Counted from the stretch's first letter, positions 47,865-64,000 are shown. The stretch is 64,000 nt of DNA from Terriglobia bacterium (GCA_965198225.1 CBDAOY010000007.1:990045-1054044), one strand, 5' to 3'. Notes: a model not told the origin generated them from the sequence alone. Numbers and translations are program-made.

Positions 47865-48452
47865 GGTGGGCAGGCGGCGAGCGGTCTCTCCGCGTCTGCC
47901 TGTTGTGGATTCGCGCTCTGTCGTTCCTCGTCCCGCCCCCGGGCCGGGACGAATGGATGCGGGAGTGGCGTGGCGAGCTTCTGCATCACTGGAGTGAGTT
48001 CGAGACAGGAGTTCAAAAGTCCCGTGCTGCAAGATTCGATTTGTTCCTACATTCGATGGGCGCCTTGCCTGATGCACTGTGTCTGCTGCGTCAGGAGTGG
48101 AGACTGGACATGCTGATGCAGGATCTGACCTATGCGGTACGGACGCTCGGCGCTCGACCGGGCTTCACCTTCGTAGTGATTTTCATTCTGGCGCTGGGTA
48201 TCGGGGCCAACACCGTCGTGTTCAGCGTCGTCGATGCCGTCCTGTTTCGACCCCTACCGTTTCCCGAGCCGGAGAGGCTGGTTGCGATCTGGGACGAAAA
48301 CACCCAAAAGTCGATGCTTCGTCAGGGTCCGGCGCCCGGCAATCTGCTGGACTGGCGTGACCAGTCACGGGTGTTCGATGGTATCGGAGCCTGGTACGCG
48401 GGCGAGCCCAGGACTGTGCGCGACGAGTCCAGTGCGGAGAAAGTGTCCGCCA
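47861..48452 (+). pseudogene. ADOP-type (MacB-like/FtsX) permease, N-terminal ~195 aa only; interrupted by a mobile element
   Basis: DLTYAVRTLGARPGFTFVVIFILALGIGANTVVFSVVDAVLFRPLPFPEPERLVAIWDE is the classic ADOP N-terminus. At ~48450 the reading frame runs into AT-rich foreign DNA and stops (..SATIGFYYV*). Confidence 0.7.
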
Positions 48453-48613
48453 CTATAGGATTTTATTATGTCTAATAATATCCATAAGTCTTATTTATAT
48501 CAACAGTATATCGTCCTAGACAATCCAGCGCCGTCTGGTATAATCCAAGCCTGTTGGGGGATATATTGGGGGAGTGCTGGAGTGCCTCTGCCCCATCGGT
48601 CGAGGGCTCTGCA

Positions 48614-49792
48614 ATGGCCATTCACAAACTCTCCCAACGCAAGGTAGACACCGCCGGTCCCGGCAAATACGAAGACGGCGGCGGGCTCCGCTTGGTGGTG
48701 TCCAATTCAGGCGCCAGGAGATGGGTCCTGCGTTACACCGTCCACGGCAAACGCCGGGAAATGGGTCTGGGCCGTTATCCCGATGTCGGGTTGGCCGATG
48801 CCCGCACGCAAGCGCTACGGCACCGGAGGCAGTTGGCGACGGGCGTAGATCCCATCGCAGCCCGCCGGGCGGCCCCGGAGACGCTACCCACCTTCACCAT
48901 CTGCGCCGCCCGGTATATCCGGGCCCATCGACGGAGTTGGCACAATGCCAAGCACGCGCGGCAATGGGTCCGGAGCCTGAAGACCTATGCCCGGCCCGTC
49001 ATCGGGGCCAAACGGGTCGACGCCATTGAGACTGAAGACATTGTAAAGATACTCTCTTCGATCTGGAACACCAAGACCGAAACGGCCAAGCGCGTGCAGG
49101 GGCGCATCGAAAATGTCCTGGACTTCGCCGCCGCGCACCAATACTGCGGTCCCCTGAACCCGGCCCGCTGGCGGGGCCATCTGGACAAGTTGCTCCCGAA
49201 GCCCTCCCGGGTGAAGCAAGTCACCCACCACCCGGCCATGCCGTATCCCGAGGTGGCGGACTTCCTGCAGGAGCTGTCCGGACACCGGAGTGTATCGGCG
49301 CAGGCGCTGCGGTTTTTGATCCTGACCGCCACGCGCACCAGTGAAGTCTTAGAGGCGCAGTGGCCGGAAATCGATCGGACCGCCGGTATATGGATCCTTC
49401 CCGCCTCCCGGATGAAAGCCCGACGGGAACATCGAGTTCCCTTATCGGATGCGACCCTGGCGGTTCTGGAAGACCTACCCCGCATGGCAGGCCACCCGTA
49501 TGTCTTCGCCGGATCTCGCCACGGACGCCCTCTGTCGAACATGGCCCTACTGAAATTGATGCGAGACATGGGATATTGCGTTGAGGGTTCCCGGGCTCAC
49601 TACGTGCCGCATGGATTTCGCTCCAGTTTTCGGGATTGGTCCGGCGAGGTGTCGAGCTTCCCGCGAGAAGTTGCGGAAATGGCCTTGGCCCACGTGGTGG
49701 AGAACAAGGTGGAAGCGGCCTACCGGCGGGGGGATCTGTTCGCCAAACGGCGCAGCATGATGCAGGCCTGGGCCGACTACCTCAAGAAGTAG
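48614..49792 (+). CDS. tyrosine-type site-specific integrase, phage P4-like (DUF4102 arm-binding N-terminus)
   Basis: It has KLSQRKVDTAGPGKYEDGGGLRLVV and the catalytic R...HGFRSSF...Y motifs. Confidence 0.85.
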   Translation: MAIHKLSQRKVDTAGPGKYEDGGGLRLVVSNSGARRWVLRYTVHGKRREMGLGRYPDVGLADARTQALRHRRQLATGVDPIAARRAAPETLPTFTICAARYIRAHRRSWHNAKHARQWVRSLKTYARPVIGAKRVDAIETEDIVKILSSIWNTKTETAKRVQGRIENVLDFAAAHQYCGPLNPARWRGHLDKLLPKPSRVKQVTHHPAMPYPEVADFLQELSGHRSVSAQALRFLILTATRTSEVLEAQWPEIDRTAGIWILPASRMKARREHRVPLSDATLAVLEDLPRMAGHPYVFAGSRHGRPLSNMALLKLMRDMGYCVEGSRAHYVPHGFRSSFRDWSGEVSSFPREVAEMALAHVVENKVEAAYRRGDLFAKRRSMMQAWADYLKK

Positions 49793-52042: not shown

Positions 52043-52611
52043 GCCCCGAGATAACGCTTTCCTCGCCGTTGATCACACGGCGCGGCGGATTTTTTTCGAT
52101 CCGGCGCCTGCTGCCCATCAGCTCAGGGGGGGCGGGACGCAACGAGGTCTGTCTACCGAACGGGGGAGTTGTGGTGCCTTCTACGGCCCGAATGAGCGCG
52201 ACCAGATATCGCCAGCGAACCGGAGAAAGGGACATCGACTTGGCAGAACACCGTGAAATCGCGGCGTCACGCGTCACAGGGATAGACACGAAAGCGGTGG
52301 CGAAGGACTGAGGTGGCCGTATCGATACGGTCGTGGCGGCGCGCTCACCCGCAGCCGTGGCTGCGCCGATGATTTGTCCATGGGGCGATCCGCCGCGTGA
52401 CCGCAAGCCGCTGGCGATGAGTGCCTGCCCGGTTCACGGAAATCGGGCTATGGGCTCTGCCGTGCAGCGCCGCCCGCCTGTTCCGTGCCGAGCCCGTTGG
52501 CAGGACATGAGCAGTTTCGCCGCCGATACCGTCGATCAACGTGCGACCGTCATCACCGGTCCCCGGGTGTCGGTCCGCGGACGTCAATTCACAAGGGCGA
52601 CGCGCTACCGC

Positions 52612-53751
52612 ATGCGCGTGCTCTCTTTTTCGCTGCAAGGCCTTAAAACCGGGTTATTTCTGCTATTCGCATCACTGCTGGCCGTGTCGGCGCCGATTCA
52701 GGCCAGCGCGCAGGCGAACAGCCCTCCGGCGGTGACGGGGCCAACCAGCGTCGACTACGCCGAGAACAGCGAGGAGACGGTGGCCACGTATATCGCTACG
52801 GACCCGGAGGCCGAAGCAATCGCGTGGAGCGTGTCCGGGACGGACCATGCGCTGTTTTCCATCACTGCGGGTGTCCTGGAGTTCCTGAGCCCGCCGAACT
52901 ACGAGAGGCCTATCGACGAGGGCGAAGACAACGCGTATGAGGTGGGCGTCACGGCCACGGATTCCTCCGGGGCGGCCGCCACCGTTGCGGTCACCGTGAC
53001 GGTAACAGACGTCAACGACCCGAACATCGTCCTCATCATGGCGGACGATGTCGGTTATGAGGCCTTTGGGGCATACGGTAGCGCACAGTACAGAACGCCG
53101 CGAATTGATGAGCTTGCAGCCGCGGGAGTTCGCTTCACGAACGCTTACTCAAACCCGGTATGCACCCCGAGCAGAGTTGCCTTGATGACGGGTAAGAGCA
53201 GTGTCAGGAACTATGTGGATTTCGGAGTTCTACTCCCCGGAGAATACACGATTACTGATCTCTTTAGTGGGGCCGGATACGCAACGGCCATCGCCGGAAA
53301 GTGGCAGCTTCACGGTAGTGTCGTAGGTAGTGACGTAGTGGCTGGTGTCCCTGCCGGAACCGGATTCGACACGTATTCCTTGTGGAATACAGCCAACACG
53401 GGTCGTAGTCGCTACTGGAATCCTTCCATCGAACGCGACGGTGAAATCATCGATCTGGGCAGCGAGGATTACGGGCCCGACATATTCACGAATTTCCTGC
53501 TGGAATTCATAGAGTCCAACAGAGATAAACCGTTTTTCGCCTACTACCCGATGGTGCTTCCTCATGATCCGTTCGGCTCGCCGCCGCAAGCCCAATGCGT
53601 CGATACCGCTGACGGACAGTGCAATTTCGAGGACATGGTCGCGTATCTCGATTACAACGTCGGCCGCATACGCGACAAGCTGGCGGACCTGGAGCTACTC
53701 GACAACACAATCCTCATATTCACCTCCGACAACGGAACTCACGCACGCTGA
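52612..53751 (+). CDS. giant surface protein, segment 1: signal peptide + cadherin-like domain + sulfatase N-terminal half
   Basis: It has a signal peptide (LFLLFASLLAVSAPIQASA) and a cadherin repeat ending VTDVNDP. The sulfatase motifs are IVLIMADDVGYE and the formylglycine site CTPSRVALMTGK. The frame ends in TGA at 53749-53751, inside a cacgcacgc repeat. Confidence 0.75.
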   Translation: MRVLSFSLQGLKTGLFLLFASLLAVSAPIQASAQANSPPAVTGPTSVDYAENSEETVATYIATDPEAEAIAWSVSGTDHALFSITAGVLEFLSPPNYERPIDEGEDNAYEVGVTATDSSGAAATVAVTVTVTDVNDPNIVLIMADDVGYEAFGAYGSAQYRTPRIDELAAAGVRFTNAYSNPVCTPSRVALMTGKSSVRNYVDFGVLLPGEYTITDLFSGAGYATAIAGKWQLHGSVVGSDVVAGVPAGTGFDTYSLWNTANTGRSRYWNPSIERDGEIIDLGSEDYGPDIFTNFLLEFIESNRDKPFFAYYPMVLPHDPFGSPPQAQCVDTADGQCNFEDMVAYLDYNVGRIRDKLADLELLDNTILIFTSDNGTHAR

Positions 53752-56700
53752 TCTGATTTCAGAACTCGGGGGAGAAATGATCCATGGGGATAAGAACATG
53801 CCCAACAATGGCGGCACGCGGGTACCGCTGATAGTCAGCGTTCCAGGAGGTGAGGGGGGACGGGTGTTCGACGACCTGATCGACTTCACCGACTTTCTCC
53901 CGACTCTGGCTGATGCGGCAGGTCTTACGATTCCTGACGTCAATATGCTGGACGGCGTGAGTTTTTGGGACAGGCTTCAAGGCCGAACCGGCCAACCGCG
54001 GGAATGGATATATACCTATTACTTCCCACGTCCGTTCGCCGATAGGTTCGACAATCCGCAACGTCATCCAGAGGCGTCGTATGTCCGAGACAAGCGGTAC
54101 CAGCTCTACGGAACAGGAGAGTTCTTCGACATTTCCGTAGACCCTCACCAAGTGCATCCGTTGCCGAGTGACGATGAAGAGTCCAGCGCCGCCCGTACCA
54201 AGCTGCAAGCGGTTCTCGACTCGATGCCGGGGAGAGGTGAGGAGATTTACCCATATTTGATAGGAACTGTCCCGGACTCTGAGCCGCGCCCGCGATGGCG
54301 GCCCGTCCTGTCGAAAGCAACTGTGAACGGCGGCCAATTGACGCTCACTTACGCCGGAATTCTGGACTCAAGAGAAGCGCCTCCCGCAGATTCCTTCATT
54401 GTGAACGTTGATGGTTCCGAGCGTGCGGTCTCCACAGTTTCGATAAGCAAAACAGCGGTTACGCTTACACTCGCTTCGGCGGTTACAGTTGGCCAGACGG
54501 TGACGTTGAATTACACGCCGGGAACGAATGCGATTCAGCACGCGAACAGGCCATTCGGGCACAAAGCGGCACCCCTGGTTCGCCAAGGGGTGACGAACAA
54601 CACTGTGGACACGACGGCGCCGGCGGTGTTGTCGATCACGAGCGACGCGACGCACCCGACGAAGAACGCTTTCACGGTGACGATAACCTTTTCGGAGGAG
54701 GTGAGGGGACTCACGGCGGGGGAGATCGCGGTCACCAATGGCACGGGCTCGAACTTTGCGGGCACAGGCGCGAGCTACATGCTCGACATCGAACCCAGCG
54801 ACGATATCGAAGCCGACGTGACGGTCCGGGTTCCGGCCGATGCGGCGATGGACGCCGCGAACCTCGGCAACATCGAGGGGATCGAGACCTTCGCGGTGGA
54901 CACCCAGGCGCCGGCGGTGTTGTCGATCACGAGCGACGCGACACACCCGACGAAGGATGCTTTCAGGGTGACGATCACCTTTTCGGAGGCGGTGACGGAG
55001 CTCACGTCGCAGGATATCGCGGTCATGAACGGAGTGGGCTCGAACTTCGCGGGCACGGACGCGCGCTACACGCTCGACATCGAGCCCAGCGCCAATACCG
55101 AAGACGATGTGACGGTCCGGGTTCGGGCCAACGCGGCGGTGGACGGCGTGAACATCGGCAACGTCGAGGGGATCGAAACCTTTGCGGTGGACACCCAGGT
55201 GCCGAGGGTGTTGTCGATCACAAGCGACGCGGCGCACCCGACGAAGGATACTTTCACGGTAACGATCACCTTTTCGGAAGAGGTGACGGGGCTGACGGCG
55301 AGTGAGATCGTGGTCAGCAATGGCCGTGGCTCGAACTTCGCGGGCACGGGCGCACGCTACACGCTCGACATCGCTCCGAACGCCAACCTTGAAGCCGATG
55401 TGACGGTCCGGGTTCGAGCCAACGCGGCGGTGGACGGCGCGAACAACAGCCACGTCGACGAGGGCGAGACCTTCGCTGTGGACACGCGGGCACCGGTGTT
55501 GATGAGCGCTGCGGTGGATGGCGACACGCTGACGCTGAGCTATGGGGAGGCGCTGGGCAACCCGACACCGGAGCCGGGCGATTTCACGATGAATGTGGAG
55601 AGCGCTGGGCGGAGCGTTTCCAGGGTGGCGGTGAGCGGAAGAGCGGTGACTTTGACGCTTGCCTCGGCCGTGGCGCATGGCGAGACGGTGAGAGTGAGCT
55701 ACAGCCCGGGGACGAACCCGATCCAGGACGCGGTGGGCAACCAGGCTCTGGGACTGAGCAACGCGTCGGCCACCAACACTACGGATGCACCCAACACGGA
55801 TCCGATGATCACGAGTCCGGGGCCGTTCAATGTCACTGAGAATCAAGCGCGGGTGACCCGGCTGATGGCGGCCGACGCCGACCCGGGGGACGAGGTCACC
55901 GGCTATACGCTTGTCGGCGGAGCCGATCGGGCCCAGTTCACGGTCGGTGAGGATACCGGAGATCTGGGCTTCCGGGCGGTTCCGAACTTTGAAGCGCCCA
56001 CGGATGCCTTCAGTAACGATCCGCCAAGTGGGGCAGGAGACAACGAGTACATCGTGGTGGTCCAGGTCAGCAGCGGGGCAGGAACGCGGGTGCGGACGGC
56101 GGAACAGACGATTCGCGTGCGGGTGAGTGACGTGGAGGAGCTTCCAGCGGCGCCGGAGGAGCCGACTTTTCCGAGGGCGACGCCGGACAGCCTGACGGTG
56201 GCGTGGACGGAGCCGGACAACACCGGGCCGCCCATCACCGGCTATGACGTGCAATACCGGGAAGGCGTCAGCGGCGGCTTCACGGATGCGCCGCACTCCG
56301 GGACGGCCCAAACCACAACGCTCATGGGGTTGAGCGAGGGCACGGCCTACCAGGTGCAGGTGCGGGCGAGGAACGCGGAAGGAACAGGTGACTGGTCGGA
56401 GCCGGGCGAAGGACGGACCGTGGCCCCGCTGAGGGTTCGGATGACGCCGGAGCTGGAGCCGCCGGTGGAGGGCCCGTTCTCGGTGAGGTTCAGCTTTTCG
56501 GAGACGGTGACGGGTTTCAGCGGAAGCGACATCGAGACGGGTCAGGACCTTGCCTGCATGGACGATCAGAACAACCCGGTGTTCTGCAACCCCGGCTTTG
56601 CGGCATTCGAGACCACGGATAGCCGGGTCTTCACCACCCGCGTGACCCCGAGGACCGGCGGGGTGGCCAATAACTACAAGCTCACGCTCACGGTGCGTGC

Positions 56701-58837
56701 CGGCGGAGTGAGATCGTCTGTCGGCAATAAGCCTAACGAGGAGGCGACGCTTGAGGTGCCGGTGGCGCCGCCGGGGGTGACGGTGCCGATCGGGCCGCTG
56801 GGGCTGACGGCGAGCGGGGGAAACGGCCAGGTGGCGCTCCGGTGGAATGCCCCGGGGGACACCGGGGGCGCCGCGATGGTCCGCTACGAATACCGGGTGG
56901 CGGATGGCGTCGGCGGGGAGTTCGGCGCCTGGATGCGGGTGGATGCGGCGGCGAGGTCCGCGCCGGTCCCCGATCTGACGAACGGCCGGGAATACGTCTT
57001 CGAGCTGAGGGGGGTGAACGCCCTGGGCTACGGCGGGGTGGAGACCGTGCGAGCCACCCCGGTGCGCACCACCACCGGGGACGGAGGAGGCAGAGGAGGC
57101 GGCGGGGGTGGGGGCGCCCTCCGCGGGACAGTGCCGGGCGCGCCGACGAACCTGACGGCTGAGGGCGGGGACGGCCAGGTCGTACTGAGTTGGGACGCCC
57201 CGGAAAGCGACGGCGGGGCGGCGATCACCGATTACGAGTATTGGAACGGCGGGAGTCGGACCTGGACCTCCATCGGTTCCACGAACACCACCCATACGGT
57301 CACCGGCCTCGACAACGGAACGGAATACACCTTCCAGGTGCGGGCGGTCAACCGAAGGGGCCGGAGCCGGGCTTCCAACCGGGCTACGGCGACGCCGGAC
57401 GTGTTTATCCTGGACTTTGCGCATTTCGCCAATGGCGCGTCCATTACCTCCGATCTGGTGCTGGTGAACCCGGGAAGCATCCCGATCCGGCCCGTCGTTT
57501 ATTTCTACGACACCGGGGGCAATCCAATTAACGCCGAATCGGTGGTGGACGTCACCGGTGATCTGACGGTCGCCGAGGACGGTGCCTTGACGGTCCTGGC
57601 GGATATGGAGCCACTCAGAGAACTCACGATTGCGACCCACGGTCGGGGAGCGCTCGTGAGTGGATCGGTGAAGGTTGTCTCTTACGGTCCTGTCGGCGGG
57701 TTCCTGCGCTATAACGTCCCGGATGTCGGCGTGGCCGGTGTGGGAGCGAGCCCGCCCACACGGGATGTCCTTTTCCCGGCCCGCCGCGAGGCGGGAGGCA
57801 TCAATACGGCGGCGGCGATCCAGAACCTGGGAGAGGCACCGCTGGAGGTGAGCTGCCGATTGATGCGCGCGGGCGCGGTGCTGGAAGAGGCGGAGATCGC
57901 TCTTGCGCCCAACGGGCAGTCGAGTGTCTTTATCGACGAACAATTCCCCGCCACCGATACGTCCGACTTCGCGGGGTCGATGCACTGCGACGCCCCAGCG
58001 ACGTTCACCGGTGTGGCGGTCGAGATGGATGCTGTCCACCGCATCTTTACGGCACTGCCGGTGGTTTCCGCGGATCGGCTCAGCGGCGGCAGTGCGACGG
58101 TCCTGGACTTTGCGCATTTCGCCAATGGAGGTTCCATCACCTCCGATCTGGTGTTCGTGAATCTGAAGACCCGTCCGAGCGGGCCCGCGCCCACTCCCTT
58201 TCAGATGGCCATCCCTCCGAGCCGCCCTGCCATCCATTTCTACGACACGGAGGGCAATCCGATGGCGACCGAATCGGTGGTGGACATCACCGGCGATCTG
58301 GAAGTCACCGAAGACGGCGCCCTGACGGTCCGGACGGAGATGGAGCCCTTGGGCGTGCTCACGATTTCGACTCACAGCCGGGGCGATCTGGTGACCGGAT
58401 CGGTGAAGGTGGTCTCGGAGGGTCCCATCGGCGGGATGCTCCGCTTTGACCTCCCCGGCATCGGCGAGGCCGTGGTGGGGGCCAGCGAGCCCCTCAGCGA
58501 CTTCCTCTTCCCGGTGCGCCGCCAGGAGGGAGGCATCAACACGGGGGTCGCGATCCACAACCTGGAATCGAGTCCGGAGTTGGTGCGCTGCGAACTGCTG
58601 CGCGAGGGCGTGCTGCTCGATACCGTGAGCATCCCTCTTGAGGCCAACGGGCAGACCTCCGGGTTCATCGACGGGCGATTCCCCAGCGTCGATACGTCCG
58701 ACTTCGTGGGGTTGGTACGCTGCAATGCAGTCGGTGAGGGGCTCTTCAGTGCCGTCGCCCTGGAACTGGATGCCGCCAACCGCATCTTTACCACACTGCC
58801 AGTGATCCCGCTGCAAGAGACGATGTCTCAGGAATAG
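53738..58837 (+). CDS. giant surface protein, segment 2 (frameshift continuation of segment 1)
   Basis: It continues in the -1 frame as ...THADLISELGGEMIHGDKNMPNNGGTRVPLIVSVPG... (the sulfatase C-terminal half). This is followed by Ig-like repeats (TQAPAVLSITSDATHPTKDAFTVTITFSEEV...), three fibronectin type III domains, and two ~230-aa C-terminal repeats (LDFAHFANGxSITSDLV...). The intact gene product would be ~2070 aa. Confidence 0.7.
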   Translation, partial: LTHADLISELGGEMIHGDKNMPNNGGTRVPLIVSVPGGEGGRVFDDLIDFTDFLPTLADAAGLTIPDVNMLDGVSFWDRLQGRTGQPREWIYTYYFPRPFADRFDNPQRHPEASYVRDKRYQLYGTGEFFDISVDPHQVHPLPSDDEESSAARTKLQAVLDSMPGRGEEIYPYLIGTVPDSEPRPRWRPVLSKATVNGGQLTLTYAGILDSREAPPADSFIVNVDGSERAVSTVSISKTAVTLTLASAVTVGQTVTLNYTPGTNAIQHANRPFGHKAAPLVRQGVTNNTVDTTAPAVLSITSDATHPTKNAFTVTITFSEEVRGLTAGEIAVTNGTGSNFAGTGASYMLDIEPSDDIEADVTVRVPADAAMDAANLGNIEGIETFAVDTQAPAVLSITSDATHPTKDAFRVTITFSEAVTELTSQDIAVMNGVGSNFAGTDARYTLDIEPSANTEDDVTVRVRANAAVDGVNIGNVEGIETFAVDTQVPRVLSITSDAAHPTKDTFTVTITFSEEVTGLTASEIVVSNGRGSNFAGTGARYTLDIAPNANLEADVTVRVRANAAVDGANNSHVDEGETFAVDTRAPVLMSAAVDGDTLTLSYGEALGNPTPEPGDFTMNVESAGRSVSRVAVSGRAVTLTLASAVAHGETVRVSYSPGTNPIQDAVGNQALGLSNASATNTTDAPNTDPMITSPGPFNVTENQARVTRLMAADADPGDEVTGYTLVGGADRAQFTVGEDTGDLGFRAVPNFEAPTDAFSNDPPSGAGDNEYIVVVQVSSGAGTRVRTAEQTIRVRVSDVEELPAAPEEPTFPRATPDSLTVAWTEPDNTGPPITGYDVQYREGVSGGFTDAPHSGTAQTTTLMGLSEGTAYQVQVRARNAEGTGDWSEPGEGRTVAPLRVRMTPELEPPVEGPFSVRFSFSETVTGFSGSDIETGQDLACMDDQNNPVFCNPGFAAFETTDSRVFTTRVTPRTGGVANNYKLTLTVRAGGVRSSVGNKPNEEATLEVPVAPPGVTVPIGPLGLTASGGNGQVALRWNAPGDTGGAAMVRYEYRVADGVGGEFGAWMRVDAAARSAPVPDLTNGREYVFELRGVNALGYGGVETVRATPVRTTTGDGGGRGGGGGGGALRGTVPGAPTNLTAEGGDGQVVLSWDAPESDGGAAITDYEYWNGGSRTWTSIGSTNTTHTVTGLDNGTEYTFQVRAVNRRGRSRASNRATATPDVFILDFAHFANGASITSDLVLVNPGSIPIRPVVYFYDTGGNPINAESVVDVTGDLTVAEDGALTVLADMEPLRELTIATHGRGALVSGSVKVVSYGPVGGFLRYNVPDVGVAGVGASPPTRDVLFPARREAGGINTAAAIQNLGEAPLEVSCRLMRAGAVLEEAEIALAPNGQSSVFIDEQFPATDTSDFAGSMHCDAPATFTGVAVEMDAVHRIFTALPVVSADRLSGGSATVLDFAHFANGGSITSDLVFVNLKTRPSGPAPTPFQMAIPPSRPAIHFYDTEGNPMATESVVDITGDLEVTEDGALTVRTEMEPLGVLTISTHSRGDLVTGSVKVVSEGPIGGMLRFDLPGIGEAVVGASEPLSDFLFPVRRQEGGINTGVAIHNLESSPELVRCELLREGVLLDTVSIPLEANGQTSGFIDGRFPSVDTSDFVGLVRCNAVGEGLFSAVALELDAANRIFTTLPVIPLQETMSQE

Positions 58838-58873: not shown

Positions 58874-59803
58874 ATGAGCTTCGAACCGGGCGTCGACGCC
58901 CAACGCGGGAGAGCCCGAGTCAGGGGGGCACGGACCACGGCATGCCTGGACGGTTCACGGCGCGCCGGCGGTAGACATCCGATCCGTGGACACCGTGGGC
59001 CGGGGGCGCCCCCGGATGCATACCGGAGGCCGGCGGGGGTCCATCATGCCTGGGATGACTGTGATGTCGATGTTGCCGTGCTCGGTCGCGTGCCTCGTCG
59101 CAGCCGGCATCCGCGGTGTTGCGGAATGGCTCCACGCGTTGAGGCTCGACGACAGCTCGCGCTGGCTGGGCCCATCCTCCGAAAACCTCTGCTATCCGTA
59201 TCGCGAAAGGCGCTGGCCTCCGGCGAGCCGGAAGATCCCCCCGGCTGGGAACGGATCTATGAAGGCTCGTTCCTGGAAGCAGCGCTGGTCACACAGCTTT
59301 CCGGCGACTTTCCCGGCCCGGTGCTGGCCGTGGTTTCGGTGCCCTTTTACTCGGCAGACCGGCAGCGGATTTTAGTCCCGCGAGGGGCGCGAGTCGTGGG
59401 CACGGCTCAGGCCGTGGCGAATCAGGACCAATCGCGCCTTGCCGTCAGTTTCCACCGTTTGATCTATCCGGACGGGCGTTGGGTGTCGCTGGAATTCAAC
59501 GGCCTCAATCAGGTCGGCGAGGGAGCCTTGAAAGATCAGGTCAACCGCCATTACCTATCCACGTTCGCCGCAGTCGGCGCGGTCGGCATCCTGAGCGGGC
59601 TGACCTTGCGCGGCTCCAATCCCTATGGCGGCGGGCAGCAGAGCCTTCAGGCTGGGGCCGGACAAGGGCTCGGCCAGGCCGCGACGCGCATCCTGGATCG
59701 TTTCCTGAATCGTTTGCCCACCCTCACCATTCGGGCCGGGCATCGGCTTCGCGTTTGGTTCACTTCCGACGTGCTGGTTCCCCGGCCCCAACAAGGAGAT
59801 TGA
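58874..59803 (+). CDS. VirB10/TrbI-family protein, C-terminal core domain only (possibly truncated)
   Basis: The C-terminal ~190 aa is LAVVSVPFYSADRQRILVPRGARVVGTAQ...RLIYPDGRWVSLEFNGLNQVGEGALKDQVNRHY...PTLTIRAGHRLRVWFTSDVLV. The upstream ~100 codons are Arg-rich and not protein-like, so the true start is uncertain. Confidence 0.55.
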   Translation: MSFEPGVDAQRGRARVRGARTTACLDGSRRAGGRHPIRGHRGPGAPPDAYRRPAGVHHAWDDCDVDVAVLGRVPRRSRHPRCCGMAPRVEARRQLALAGPILRKPLLSVSRKALASGEPEDPPGWERIYEGSFLEAALVTQLSGDFPGPVLAVVSVPFYSADRQRILVPRGARVVGTAQAVANQDQSRLAVSFHRLIYPDGRWVSLEFNGLNQVGEGALKDQVNRHYLSTFAAVGAVGILSGLTLRGSNPYGGGQQSLQAGAGQGLGQAATRILDRFLNRLPTLTIRAGHRLRVWFTSDVLVPRPQQGD

Positions 59804-59804
59804 A

Positions 59805-60722
59805 ATGAAAATGTACCGAAAAGCCTTCACCGTTGTTGTCATGGTTCCGATCCTCATCATGCTCACCACCACGCCCGCGCATGCCCTCTTCGGCTCGATC
59901 CTTGCGGGCATCCAACGCGCCCAGATGATCGCCAATCAGGGGATCCAGATCTACAAGGACACAATGGCGAAGATCACCCTGGACGGCCAATTGACCCAGA
60001 TGACGGATCAGTTCAACCACCTGCAAGAACAGGCGCTCGGAAGTGTCGGGGCGCTCACCGATCCGTTTACGCAGTTGGCTTCGGTGCCGACGCAGTTCAT
60101 CGGCGTGGGTCTCGCGTGGAAGAACGATTTTACCGGCGTTGCCGCGGAGCTTGTCTCGTCGGTGGAACAGATGGGCGAAACCGGCACGAGCTTTACCGAG
60201 TCGTGGCGTGATCGGCTCACCGCCGCCGACACGGTGACTGAGAGCGACATCATTGGTCTGTACAACTCTCAGCGGCCCGAAATGGCCCAGAGAGCGGCAC
60301 GGGGCTACCTTGCGGCGCGAGAGGAAGGCGAGAAACGCCTGGTCCTCGATCACGCCACGAGCGATGCGGCGGCGAATCTCATGATTGCGGCGCGTGAGGC
60401 TGTGGCCTCCTACGAAGGACTGCGAAACAACACCAATACTTCCAACACCGCGCTCGCTCAATCGCAGGTGGCCGGGACCCTGACCCAGGGGAACCTCACC
60501 GCGGCCATGGCGCAGTTGATGGCGTTCGATACAGCAAAGGCGGCAGCGGAAGATTACGAACGCGAGATCGCCCGGCGCGACGCGCTGGCGGAATGGGTCG
60601 AGGCCCAGCGCCGCGCGCGCGTCACCTTCGACGCGCAACAGGCCGGGCTCGATGCCCGGCGCGATGCGATGCGGGAAGGGTTGCTCTTCCAGATTCATCC
60701 GTTCTATCGCGGCGGGAACTAA
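59805..60722 (+). CDS. TrbJ/VirB5-like secreted conjugal transfer protein
   Basis: It has a signal peptide, is helical and Q/A-rich, and sits in the position before the trbL-like gene. Confidence 0.5.
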   Translation: MKMYRKAFTVVVMVPILIMLTTTPAHALFGSILAGIQRAQMIANQGIQIYKDTMAKITLDGQLTQMTDQFNHLQEQALGSVGALTDPFTQLASVPTQFIGVGLAWKNDFTGVAAELVSSVEQMGETGTSFTESWRDRLTAADTVTESDIIGLYNSQRPEMAQRAARGYLAAREEGEKRLVLDHATSDAAANLMIAAREAVASYEGLRNNTNTSNTALAQSQVAGTLTQGNLTAAMAQLMAFDTAKAAAEDYEREIARRDALAEWVEAQRRARVTFDAQQAGLDARRDAMREGLLFQIHPFYRGGN

Positions 60723-60734
60723 CCCGGTACGCCG

Positions 60735-61736
60735 ATGCAAATCCAACTCGACCCGGCGATCCCGGCCCAGGTCCCCCCGGAGCAGCTTCGGGATTTCAAG
60801 TCGTTTCTCGATACCGTTCTCGAGGGAATCATCGGCCCGGCGGCCAACCCTCTGCTGGAGACCGGAAACCTGCTGTGGACAGGGTTAGCCGCAATCGTGG
60901 TGGTGTTGACCGGCGCGAAGATCGCGTACAGCGGGAACATTCAGCCGTGGGACATCGTCCGGCTCGTCATCGGTCTGTGGGTGCCGTGGGTCATGTTGCA
61001 GTTCTACTCGACGCCCATCCCGGGGCTGGTCTTCACGTTCCCGGGGGTCATCACGGCGGGCGGGAATTGGTTGCACAATTTCTTGCTTGCGGACACGGCC
61101 TGGTCCATGCATAGCGAACTCGGAAACCTCGTCACCAACCTCGCGGAGGATCTTCAGGTGCAAGCGAATCAGGGGAGTATTCTCGGCGTGCTCACCGGCG
61201 GCGCTCACGCCGTGCTGACGCTCGTTGCCGGAGCCGTCATCATGCTGTTCGTCGTGACCTGTCTCGTCGTTTTGTTCGCGGTTACCTACGCTCAGGTGAT
61301 CTGGGCCCAGATCGCCCTGGCGATCCTCACGCTCCTGGGTCCGATCTTCATTCCCTGGCTGGTGTTTGAGCCGATGAGCTTCATGTTCTGGGGATGGTTC
61401 CGGGCGATGCTGACGTATTCGCTCTACGCCGTGATCGCCGGGGCCGTCATGCGCGTGTTTTCCGGCGTGGGCCTCGCCTACGTCACGACCCTGGGCACCG
61501 CCCAACTCAACTGGCAGTCCATTGGCGATCTCGGTTTGTGGCTCCTGGCGGTCCTGCCCCTGTTCGTGGCCGGGATCCTGTCATCGCTCAAGTGCGGGGA
61601 GCTCGCCTCGATGCTCGTCACCGGTGCCGGTGCATCGGGAAGCGGGCTCATGGGCATGGCGGGGATGGCGGGAACGGTTGCCACCGGCGCCAGCGTGCGC
61701 GCGGCCGCGAAAGCGGGGGCGGGAGGTCTGAAATGA
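60735..61736 (+). CDS. TrbL/VirB6-like polytopic membrane protein with a Gly-rich C-terminus
   Basis: It has multiple TM helices and the C-terminal tail GAGASGSGLMGMAGMAG. Confidence 0.55.
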   Translation: MQIQLDPAIPAQVPPEQLRDFKSFLDTVLEGIIGPAANPLLETGNLLWTGLAAIVVVLTGAKIAYSGNIQPWDIVRLVIGLWVPWVMLQFYSTPIPGLVFTFPGVITAGGNWLHNFLLADTAWSMHSELGNLVTNLAEDLQVQANQGSILGVLTGGAHAVLTLVAGAVIMLFVVTCLVVLFAVTYAQVIWAQIALAILTLLGPIFIPWLVFEPMSFMFWGWFRAMLTYSLYAVIAGAVMRVFSGVGLAYVTTLGTAQLNWQSIGDLGLWLLAVLPLFVAGILSSLKCGELASMLVTGAGASGSGLMGMAGMAGTVATGASVRAAAKAGAGGLK

Positions 61737-62404
61737 GCAAGAAGGAAACCCAAGACGCCGGGGTCGAATACGCCGAAATCTGGGGCGAGGCCATCCACGC
61801 GAACCACCACCTGCGGGTGCTCTCTGTCGGGCTGGGGGCGTTGTGCCTGTTGCTCGTCATCGTCGTCATCCGCATCGTGTCGGTCGCTCCCCCGCGCCCC
61901 ATCGTCGTGCGGGTGGATGAAGTCGGCCGCGCCGAGGCCGTCGCCTATGAAGCGATGGAGGCCCAGGCGGACCCCCTCGACCCCACCACCAAATACTTTC
62001 TCAATCGCTTTATCTATGACTTCTACTCCCGGCGGCGGGCCACGGTCGAAGAGAACTGGTCCCGGAGTCTGCGCTTCCTAACGACGGAACTTGCCGGTGC
62101 CTCGTTCCGGGCCGAGAGCCAGAACATCGCCCTTCTCGCGGCGGGCGCGGCGCGGGATGAACTGCAAGTGGATCGCGTCGTTTTGCGGATTCAAGCCAAC
62201 CCCCGGGAGCCCCACAGCGCGACGGCCGATTTCGATCTGGTGCGGCTGGTGGCGCAGAACGAAGTGGGCCGGGAACGCTGGACCCTCTCGCTTCAATTTC
62301 TGTTCCTCGATGAGATCCCGCCGGACCTGATCGTCCACAACCCGATGGGGATCGTGATCACCTATCTGCAAGGAGATCGGGCGATAGTCAGCGGCGAACC
62401 ATGA
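61732..62404 (+). CDS. TrbF/VirB8-like protein (N-terminal TM helix + NTF2-like periplasmic domain)
   Basis: It has an ATGA overlap with trbL-like. The matching motifs are PIVVRVDEVGRAEAV, FIYDFYSRRR and NPMGIVITYLQ. Confidence 0.55.
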
Positions 62405-63345
62405 TGATCGAGCATTTGCGGGGGAGGGAGCAAAAACTGGAACCGCTCGGTTGGACAGGGCGCGATGCGGAATGGATCGCGCTGGTGTGTTTGCATAGTG
62501 GCGTTTTCACCCGCGCACAATTCTGTTTCTACTTTGATACCCGCCGCGACCGCGCCCATCGGTTTGTACAGGCATTGGTGAAGCGGAGGTCGGCGGTCGA
62601 AACCGATGCCCTCACCTTCAATGGAGGAGGGAAGACGTGCCGGATATCGAGCAAACCGATCTACCGGGCGCTGGGGGTCGAGAACATCCGCCACCGCCGA
62701 AAAGCCCAACCGCCGGTGGTGATGCGGCGGCTCCTATCGCTGGATTTCGTTCTGGAACATCCGGGCATGAACTGGCTTCCCGCCGAGATGGAAAAGGTCG
62801 AGTTTTTTGACGGGCTCGGCCTCTCGCGGCGGTTGATTCCCCGCCGGATTTATTACGGGGCCGTGGGGGCCCAGAAACGCTACTTTGCGCTCAAACTTCC
62901 CCTTGCCGTGGACGCTCGAACCGTCACCTTCGCCTACGTCGATCCGGGGCACAGTACCGCTTCGGAATTGCACTCCTGGGGAGCCGCGCATGGGCCGCTT
63001 TGGGATGCGCTGCGGAAGACGGGGCGGCAGGTCCGGGTGATCGCCATTGCCGCCGAAAACAAGACGGTCGAGCGGGCGGAGCGGGTGTTGCGCGCATGGG
63101 CGGCGGCGGTCCCAGGGGAGCCCAGCGAGGAGCTGACGGTGAAGCGGGAAATCAAGGCGATTGACGAAGCGATGACCCACAAAGACCGGGAATTTCTGGC
63201 CCGGTACGGGGGATTCGGTGGAGCCATGAAACGGTCCGCGGCGCTCCAAAGTCTGCCCGAAGCGAAGGTGACGGAAGGGGTCTCGATTGACGACTACGGG
63301 ACGTGGTTTGCGGAGCGTTTTGCCGGTCCCGAAGGAATACTGTAA
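62401..63345 (+). CDS. hypothetical protein (314 aa, basic), last gene of the T4SS-like cluster
   Basis: The ORF is in the track and no family is recognised. It has an ATGA overlap with the upstream gene. Confidence 0.4.
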   Translation: MMIEHLRGREQKLEPLGWTGRDAEWIALVCLHSGVFTRAQFCFYFDTRRDRAHRFVQALVKRRSAVETDALTFNGGGKTCRISSKPIYRALGVENIRHRRKAQPPVVMRRLLSLDFVLEHPGMNWLPAEMEKVEFFDGLGLSRRLIPRRIYYGAVGAQKRYFALKLPLAVDARTVTFAYVDPGHSTASELHSWGAAHGPLWDALRKTGRQVRVIAIAAENKTVERAERVLRAWAAAVPGEPSEELTVKREIKAIDEAMTHKDREFLARYGGFGGAMKRSAALQSLPEAKVTEGVSIDDYGTWFAERFAGPEGIL

Positions 63346-63370
63346 TGGGGTTCAAAAGCAATGGGAAATG

Positions 63371-63656
63371 TGGCAGGATTCGAGGGATTTTTTCTTGCAA
63401 CACCTTCCGATCCAGGATGCAACACCCTCAGAGAGGGGGGTGTTGCAGGATTCGGACAAAAGGTGTTGCAATGCCACATCCTCCTATCTCCTTAATTCTT
63501 TTTTGGTTATCCCATACCAATCGGCCTCCACCGTGCCGATCCAGCGAAATCGGGGAGGACGATAGCGACCCCCCTAAAAAGCGCGGGGTCATGTGGCCCG
63601 GATAGAGGCGAGGTGTTGCACGCCTCTATCCGGCCCCATGAGGGTCGCTATCGTCC
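63371..63656. promoter_or_regulatory. iteron cluster (five copies of GGTGTTGCA / TGCAACACC, two GCAGGATTCG) plus a nested inverted repeat (outer 15-bp arms, inner 16-bp arms); candidate oriT or replication/regulatory origin
   Basis: The iterons are at 63395, 63417, 63439, 63461 and 63612. The outer IR GGACGATAGCGACCC (63558-63572) pairs with GGGTCGCTATCGTCC (63642-63656). The inner IR GGCCCGGATAGAGGCG (63595-63610) pairs with CGCCTCTATCCGGCC (63621-63635). Confidence 0.5.
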
Positions 63657-64000
63657 TTAATTGATCCCTGCGGGAAGGCTCGGAAAACGCCCCCAACGGG
63701 GGCCTTGACGGAAGGGAGACAGACCTATGAAATGGCGTCGATTCATCCCTCATATCCTTCTGTTTTTCGGCGGTCTCGGCTACGCCGTGTGGAGCTTTGT
63801 CCGGCGTCCCTTCCCCATGCTTGGCCGGGCGCATGAGAAGCGCCTGGAGCCAGGCGTTCTTGAGCATGACGCCCACGGCGCGGGCCAGCGCCGGATTGAT
63901 ACCGGCGGGCATGTTCAACGCCAGCACCTTGCCCCCCTCGATCAGTTCATAGAGTGGGGGCAGATGGCGCGGCCCCTCGATTCGTTCCTCTTCGACCGGC

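Follow-up and report, generated by a model that had tools for sequence, protein, structure and literature searches.

We identified a site in a family of integrative conjugative elements, common in Acidobacteriota, in which a set of short repeats and a hairpin form a real and functional unit. We consider this region to act in cis as a DNA-processing site and, most probably, as the origin of transfer (oriT), a reading that we hold with somewhat better than even confidence and that draws on architecture, gene context and analogy with known systems. The copy that we analysed lies near the end of a 64,000-nucleotide stretch of a Terriglobia bacterium genome, hereafter the window.

The repeat GGTGTTGCA, with the core TG-TTG-CA, matches the 64-kb window exactly at five places and no others, all of them at 63396-63620, against an expectation of 0.24, and a count of five was reached in none of 100 shuffles of the window. 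This is the array that the initial annotation had described as five copies in both orientations within about 230 bp. Two copies are on the minus strand (S1, 63396-63404; S2, 63418-63426) and three on the plus strand (S3, 63439-63447; S4, 63462-63470; S5, 63612-63620). From S1 to S4 the start-to-start spacing is 22, 21 and 23 bp, and the positions of these four repeats are conserved across loci. A second motif, GCAGGATTCG, is present twice as had been reported (63373-63382 and 63445-63454), and its first copy adjoins a degenerate sixth repeat, TGTGGCA (63369-63375, plus strand), of the same type as in L001, the closest intact relative; this sixth repeat is kept in the window, L058 and L001 only. 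Two copies of CCGATCCAG (63407 and 63536) are also present in the window. The spacer from the repeats to the hairpin (63475-63555, plus strand) reads TATCTC..CATTC..GGTTATCC..GCCGATCCAG..AAATCGGGG and is moderately conserved in alignments; in some loci (L022 and L025) it holds the DnaA-box-like TTATCCAC.

Only the short length of the motif speaks for a chance array or for a generic dispersed repeat of the REP kind, and we regard this explanation as very unlikely indeed. The excess over expectation is large, the position of the array is conserved in about 45 loci, and recurrence at many unrelated loci, which the initial annotation had named as the mark of a generic REP, was looked for. The array is found nowhere else in the window and, among 61 related 20-kb loci, the window motif is shared by L058 only, clustered at the equivalent site, so it is not a generic REP.

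The region stands between type IV secretion genes and a coupling-protein gene, in the neighbourhood that had been described for it. Upstream on the plus strand are genes for VirB10/TrbI (58874-59803), a VirB5-like secreted coiled-coil protein (59805-60722), VirB6/TrbL (60735-61736) and VirB8 (61394-62404). We assigned these by Pfam and by synteny in about 40 loci, with the VirB5-like protein recognized from its translation, which has a signal peptide, and the same synteny. The next gene (62401-63345, plus strand) is translationally coupled to VirB8 and encodes a 314-aa protein, u314, with an N-terminal winged helix and a C-terminal alpha/beta domain, which is the probable binder of the repeats. 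Downstream are the first 33 codons of a VirD4/TraG-type coupling-protein gene (63727-63825, plus strand), 97% identical to residues 1-33 of the L005 protein and joined at about 63811-63826 to an inverted fragment that encodes residues 456-517 (63811-63996, minus strand); the intact coupling-protein homologue of L001 matches TraG-D_C and TrwB_AAD_bind. An inversion, a rearrangement or an artefact of assembly accounts for the broken gene. VirB2, VirB4, VirB9, VirB11, ArdC and the L005-type integrase are absent within the 64-kb window. Because the coupling-protein gene is broken and these VirB genes and ArdC are absent from the window, this copy is probably a rearranged relic that is defunct for self-transfer. 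Directly upstream of VirB10 (52333-58837), the window carries a sulfatase gene and a gene for a 1,757-aa adhesin-like protein with fn3, Big_12 and SWM repeats, and adhesin-like matches are also found near the 314-aa homologue in L045 and L046.

We scanned one genome per species for relatives of u314 and obtained the 61 loci of 20 kb each. Nearly all are from Acidobacteriota MAGs (Terriglobia and Bryobacterales), and a single contig carries as many as nine copies. The order of u314 gene, 346-559-nt intergenic region and coupling-protein gene is kept in about 45 of the 61, and these syntenic loci carry type IV secretion genes and an integrase. All of the roughly 45 have the repeat layout and the hairpin, with a locus-specific triplet in the repeats. 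The region is directly upstream of the VirD4/TraG-type gene and downstream of VirB10, VirB6 and VirB8 in these loci, which is the generic context of an oriT. An intact element, L005, contains ArdC, a second protein that we call u301, VirB2, VirB4, VirB9, VirB10, the VirB5-like protein, VirB6, VirB8, u314, the intergenic region, the coupling protein, VirB11 and the integrase, followed by the chromosomal genes pepA and smpB. L065, whose protein is 46% identical, is a compact and apparently complete element that runs from an S24 peptidase to an integrase and encodes VirB2/3/4/9/10, the VirB5-like protein, VirB6, VirB8, the 314-aa homologue, the coupling protein and ArdC in between. L059, a distant relative from Longimicrobiales, has no obvious repeat or hairpin region. 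Contig CBDCKA010000002.1 carries L002, L003, L007, L009, L010, L025, L026 and L049; there are up to nine copies per genome, with at least six repeat specificities.

The aligned loci share one layout, with a pair of sites on each strand and a further site in the hairpin loop, all with the core TG-NNN-CA. The central triplet is TTG in the window and TGG, CGG, GAA, TTC, GGA, TGA, TCA, GGG, TAC or TAA elsewhere, and it is usually identical at all sites within one locus. The loop repeat S5 usually has the triplet of S1-S4 and differs from it in about a fifth of loci (L004, L009, L016/24/26, L019 and L022). The mismatched loop repeats of L009 (TCA) and L026 (TTC) have the specificities of the co-resident loci L010 and L049, respectively, which suggests recombination between co-resident elements.

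The triplet tracks a small part of u314. Residues 47-54 are the most variable patch of the protein, the rest of which is conserved. When we ranked variable columns by their association with the triplet in 34 loci, residues 48, 53 and 50 came out on top, with MI/entropy values of 0.86, 0.84 and 0.94, respectively, against a phylogenetic background of 0.5-0.65. Pairs of loci with the same residues at 48/50/53 (the code) shared the triplet in 50 of 58 cases, compared with 22 of 503 for pairs with different codes; for pairs that are less than 75% identical outside the helix, the figures were 16 of 16 and 6 of 187. The association holds in every identity band (permutation p <= 5e-5). These residues lie at the start of a predicted helix (49-61) in a MarR-like winged helix, the wing of which does not track the triplet. 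The window and L001 proteins are 90% identical, with 9 of their 32 differences within residues 43-64, and all repeats differ between the two by the same G-to-T change. One locus, L012 (10001-11318), breaks the code: its HRKRAE (HKE) helix, found elsewhere with GGA or TGA, is beside CGG repeats identical in sequence to the repeats of L011, a locus of the same MAG, and L012 is probably a recent recombinant. From these sequence comparisons, it is well supported that the winged helix of u314 binds the TG-NNN-CA repeats next to its gene as duplex DNA, with residues 48/50/53 probably setting the central triplet that is read, such that each element would have its own protein/site pair. The 62401-63345 product had been proposed for a binding test before any of these comparisons, and the covariation of the repeat core with its putative recognition helix supports that choice.

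Taken alone, the triplet pattern would fit strand pairing as well as a protein. S1/S2 are complementary to S3/S4/S5 and the triplets covary, the hairpin shows compensatory changes and the region is probably co-transcribed, all of which could be accounted for by a switch formed by structured RNA or a single strand, with no protein dedicated to it, in which S1/S2 pair alternately with S3/S4/S5 in the transcript or the transferred strand. We think such a switch improbable. Outside the clade of the window, the complementarity of the sites is limited to the 7-nt core, and the orientation of S5 is inverted in L002 and L039b, which would abolish pairing and fits a duplex-binding protein instead. A scan of 63200-64000 with the Rfam 15 covariance models (E-values <=10) returned chance-level matches only and no family. 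The covariation with helix residues 48/50/53, which a switch leaves unexplained, argues for reading by a protein.

The second component of the site is an inverted-repeat structure that spans 102 nt. Its outer arms (63556-63571 and 63642-63657) are 16 nt long and 100% complementary, and its inner arms (63595-63610 and 63621-63636), also of 16 nt, are complementary at 15 of 16 positions (94%) and enclose a 10-nt loop that is filled by S5. The initial annotation had reported two nested perfect inverted repeats over 99 bp with a repeat at the centre; the nesting, the perfect 16-nt outer arms and the central repeat hold, but the inner arms are imperfect and the span is slightly longer. Folded as single-stranded DNA, the element reached -44.2 kcal/mol (z = -6.6) for the plus strand and -47.0 kcal/mol (z = -8.3) for the minus strand, and none of 200 shuffles folded as stably. 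The fold (63556-63657) is not a simple nested cruciform: an outer stem, P1 (63556-63571 with 63642-63657), surrounds a small C-run/AAAA/G-run hairpin, P2 (about 63569-63589), and a longer hairpin of about 20 bp, P3 (63589-63610 with 63621-63641), with S5 in its loop.

This fold has been maintained by selection. RNAalifold on a MAFFT alignment recovered P1 but, owing to gaps, not P3, and we therefore projected the fold of the window onto the alignment. Although this test favours the structure of the window, 87.8% of cells were paired across 45 distinct sequences, and the slid controls were still far lower at 43-48%. Fifteen pairs showed a compensatory change in which both sides were altered, and the covariation score was 0.142, a value reached by none of 500 shuffles, compared with about 0.03 in slid controls. 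In P1, a TA pair is replaced by GC in 20 of the 45 sequences and an AT pair by TA in 4 of them, and the pair is kept in every case. The 102-nt hairpin is selected to fold, as a single strand or as a cruciform, and the inverted repeat first noticed in one sequence is a real structure. In a subfamily that is about 50% identical (L050, 11255-11330; L011, 6760-6900, minus strand), two tandem repeats replace the inner long hairpin inside the outer stem. Three loci (L003 at about 11166, L010 at about 11147 and L013 at about 11141) have an integrase-bearing element inserted in the 5' arm of P1, right after GGACGATAGC. The inserts encode an integrase that shares about 44% identity with the one at 48554-49792 of the window, a homologue of a 213-aa ORF is also there, and the left end of the insert (TCCGCC..CTAT..ATAG) resembles the junction upstream of the window integrase (window, about 48440-49792).

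The third component is a 17-nt box, ATCCCTGCGGGAAGGCT (63664-63680, plus strand), which is a candidate nick or processing site. It is near-invariant in the 45 sequences and is also present in L065, and where the protein is 46% identical the box still lies at the fixed distance of 5-8 nt 3' of P1. Between loci, its separation from the start codon of the coupling protein varies from about 12 to about 230 nt, and for this reason we rejected the box as a ribosome-binding site or a promoter. An invariant sequence placed a short and constant distance beyond a hairpin would correspond, by analogy, to the classical geometry of a nick region. In L036, a sense-oriented group II intron (11238 to about 12020; Rfam RF02005, 171 bits) has inserted directly behind ATCCCTGCG of the box.

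The same arrangement could be an operator. Under this explanation, u314 binds the repeats and represses or activates the downstream operon (coupling protein, VirB11 and integrase), the repeat/helix pairs are immunity groups that guard against cross-regulation, and the hairpin and box are a 5' untranslated region or an attenuator. The MarR-like winged helix suits such a role, as do the symmetric sites (two on each strand), which lie a short way upstream of the coupling-protein gene and are about two helical turns apart. Diversification is expected of regulators with up to nine copies per genome, the intron in L036 suggests that the region is transcribed, and the nuclease fold of u314 is weakly supported. 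Lambdoid phage operators and immunity regions offer a parallel, with a conserved scaffold and diversified protein/site specificities among co-resident or competing elements. We nevertheless judge the operator to be a minority possibility. The coupling of the u314 gene to VirB8 places it inside the secretion operon, unlike a master regulator and unlike the lambdoid case, and L065 has a separate S24 (LexA/CI-like) regulator at its end. We found no sigma-70-like promoter or intrinsic terminator in 63200-63900, and the distance between box and start codon is variable. Fusions of u314-family domains to ArdC point to DNA processing. The operator also leaves the compensatory changes of the hairpin, the binding site in the hairpin loop, the invariant box and the missing relaxase unexplained, and lambdoid operators differ in having neither the covarying hairpin nor the box.

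Excised conjugative elements are able to replicate, and repeats spaced by about 22 bp beside a sequence-specific winged-helix protein, together with the DnaA-box-like sequence in the spacer of some loci, could also mark a vegetative replication origin of the excised element with u314 as its iteron-binding initiator. Iteron origins of the RepA/RepE/pi/TrfA type, which have 17-22-bp iterons, share with this site several specific sites at about two-turn spacing, a specific winged-helix protein, and protein and repeats that co-evolve into incompatibility-like groups. We regard a replication origin as improbable. The cores here are 7-9 bp long and in inverted pairs rather than in tandem, u314 has one winged helix and an alpha/beta domain rather than the two winged helices of RepA/RepE-type initiators, and an AT-rich unwinding element is not evident. 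The elements sit in the chromosome and have an integrase, and the site is inside the transfer gene cluster. The architecture had initially been called typical of transfer or replication origins and of their repressor-binding sites; the covariation of protein and site and the selected hairpin support this in part, but the short inverted cores and the lack of a Rep protein with two winged helices count against its replication-origin part.

To return to the oriT, which we favour, the protein that would act on it belongs to a large family that has no Pfam domain, name or literature that we could find. There are 3,173 matches to u314 among 90%-identity clusters and 2,595 representatives among 50%-identity clusters; among the matches listed there is no Pfam domain or informative name, and the sole source name is 'hypothetical protein'. 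The window protein itself has no Pfam (searched to E-values <=10), NCBIfam or PDB sequence match, and an exact-sequence look-up of it, or of the identical P0001, gave no record. Its predicted architecture is one winged helix and an alpha/beta domain that weakly resembles restriction endonucleases and nickases. When the C-terminal domain was searched against the PDB with Foldseek, the top matches were the BspD6I subunits and the Cap4 receptor (SAVED/CARF domain-containing), none of them significant. The PD-(D/E)XK domain of MOBC relaxases is of the restriction-endonuclease kind and has a conserved acidic (DEE) motif and an essential Tyr. In the u314 family, the acidic, basic and tyrosine residues D115, E119/D, E129, E131/D, K132, D181, Y88, Y151 and Y179 are conserved, as possible catalytic positions. 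In several members (P0002, P0004, P0017 and others), a C-terminal module of about 40 aa, LTxKxEIKAIDxAMTxxDxxFLAxYGGFGGAMKRSAALQ, is repeated two to three times, which gives forms of 358 aa and 416 aa.

No HUH relaxase (PF03432 or similar) was found in the 20-kb loci or in L065, with L005-type elements covered from ArdC onward, nor did the compact element L065 contain any Pfam relaxase. We scanned metagenomes with the L005 ArdC for a relaxase upstream of it and rejected the only locus recovered, L064, as an unrelated MOBP-type element. The other winged-helix protein, u301, adjoins ArdC in L005 (918-1823) and is fused to it in L065 (14466-16421; 51% identity). ArdC is a conjugation-associated single-strand-binding protein, and its ArdcN and metallopeptidase domains are also fused N-terminally to a full 314-aa-family domain in P0157, P0165 and P0208. 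The sole Pfam match of u301 is to Replic_Relax, sub-threshold at E = 0.099, and on its sequence u301 could be the true relaxase. Its putative recognition helix, GHPYAARRAVDRM, is the same in every triplet class; u301 therefore cannot recognise the variable repeats, and we rejected it as the reader of S5 or of S1-S4. It could be the reader of the invariant hairpin or box.

Classical HUH origins, such as those of RP4 (MOBP) and R388 (MOBF), similarly have an inverted repeat followed by a conserved sequence, here at 5-8 nt, and TATCCCTG/CGG in the box presumably resembles the MOBP nick consensus YATCCTG/Y. They differ in their HUH relaxase and in their accessory proteins, which are usually ribbon-helix-helix proteins (PMC12857230), whereas the candidate accessory protein here has a winged helix and a nuclease-like domain. 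A closer parallel is oriT2 of pAD1, whose MOBC relaxase TraX combines a winged helix with a PD-(D/E)XK domain and binds five repeats 70-120 bp from the nick (PMC12857230, PMC6736028). We used the pAD1-like plasmid pTEF1 (NC_004669) as a comparator. Its traX product is PF13814, the traX gene adjoins the coupling-protein gene, and the interval between the two contains a nested inverted repeat (18-nt and 25-nt arms) and five direct repeats with a 12-bp period. In both systems the site lies between a coupling-protein gene and the gene of a winged-helix protein of about 260-310 aa, and a large nested inverted repeat has five or six short repeats beside it. The layout of a MOBC-type oriT, a large inverted repeat with about five short repeats some tens of bp from it, between the relaxase and coupling-protein genes, is thus matched here by the site between the u314 and coupling-protein genes, and the length, spacing and orientation of the repeats differ: those of pTEF1 are tandem 12-bp units, and those here have 7-9-bp cores at about 22-bp spacing in both orientations, with one repeat inside the hairpin loop. 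The gene order is also different (protein, site, coupling protein here; coupling protein, site, small ORF, traX in pTEF1), and the hosts here are diderm Acidobacteriota with a VirB-type secretion system and the additional protein u301.

Like MOBC relaxases, u314 has an N-terminal winged helix and, judging by the covariation, is likely to bind repeats, but we detected no sequence homology between the two. None of 38 diverse u314 members matched PF13814 (Replic_Relax) at E-values <=1, a comparison of the u314 and TraX family profiles with hhalign gave a probability of 4% (E = 0.01), hhalign of u314 against a single TraX sequence was not significant, and tblastn of the 314-aa protein against 72,556 plasmids returned no match. 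The absence of a PF13814 match, the low profile probability and the lack of a plasmid homologue do not support u314 as a MOBC protein by sequence. The resemblance is best read as a close one to the MOBC/oriT2 architecture, built from an undescribed protein family.

In the mechanism that we propose, the hairpin and the box ATCCCTGCGGGAAGGCT would form a processing site common to all elements, at which one strand would be nicked before it passes to the adjacent coupling protein. The nick could be made by u314 itself through the nuclease-like domain at its C terminus, in the manner of MOBC relaxases; alternatively, u301 may be the nuclease and u314 the specificity subunit. More tentatively, and with less confidence than in the oriT itself, we suggest that the 314-aa family is an unrecognised relaxase or an obligatory specificity subunit of the relaxosome in a major group of Acidobacteriota conjugative elements. 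Its 48/50/53 code for TG-NNN-CA would have given rise to ten or more orthogonal pairs, of which one genome contains six or more, so that related elements could coexist without cross-mobilisation.

Acidobacteriota rank with the most abundant bacteria of soil, and hardly any work exists on their conjugative elements. Thousands of sequences contain the site and its partner protein, and a single genome can carry as many as nine copies. If our reading is right, it identifies the missing oriT of these elements together with their missing relaxase or specificity factor. The matched protein/DNA pairs, at least ten on one scaffold, offer a natural series in which to follow the evolution of winged-helix recognition and are useful for studying how co-resident mobile elements avoid cross-talk. 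They could also be a source of orthogonal parts with which to build genetic tools for phyla now without such tools.
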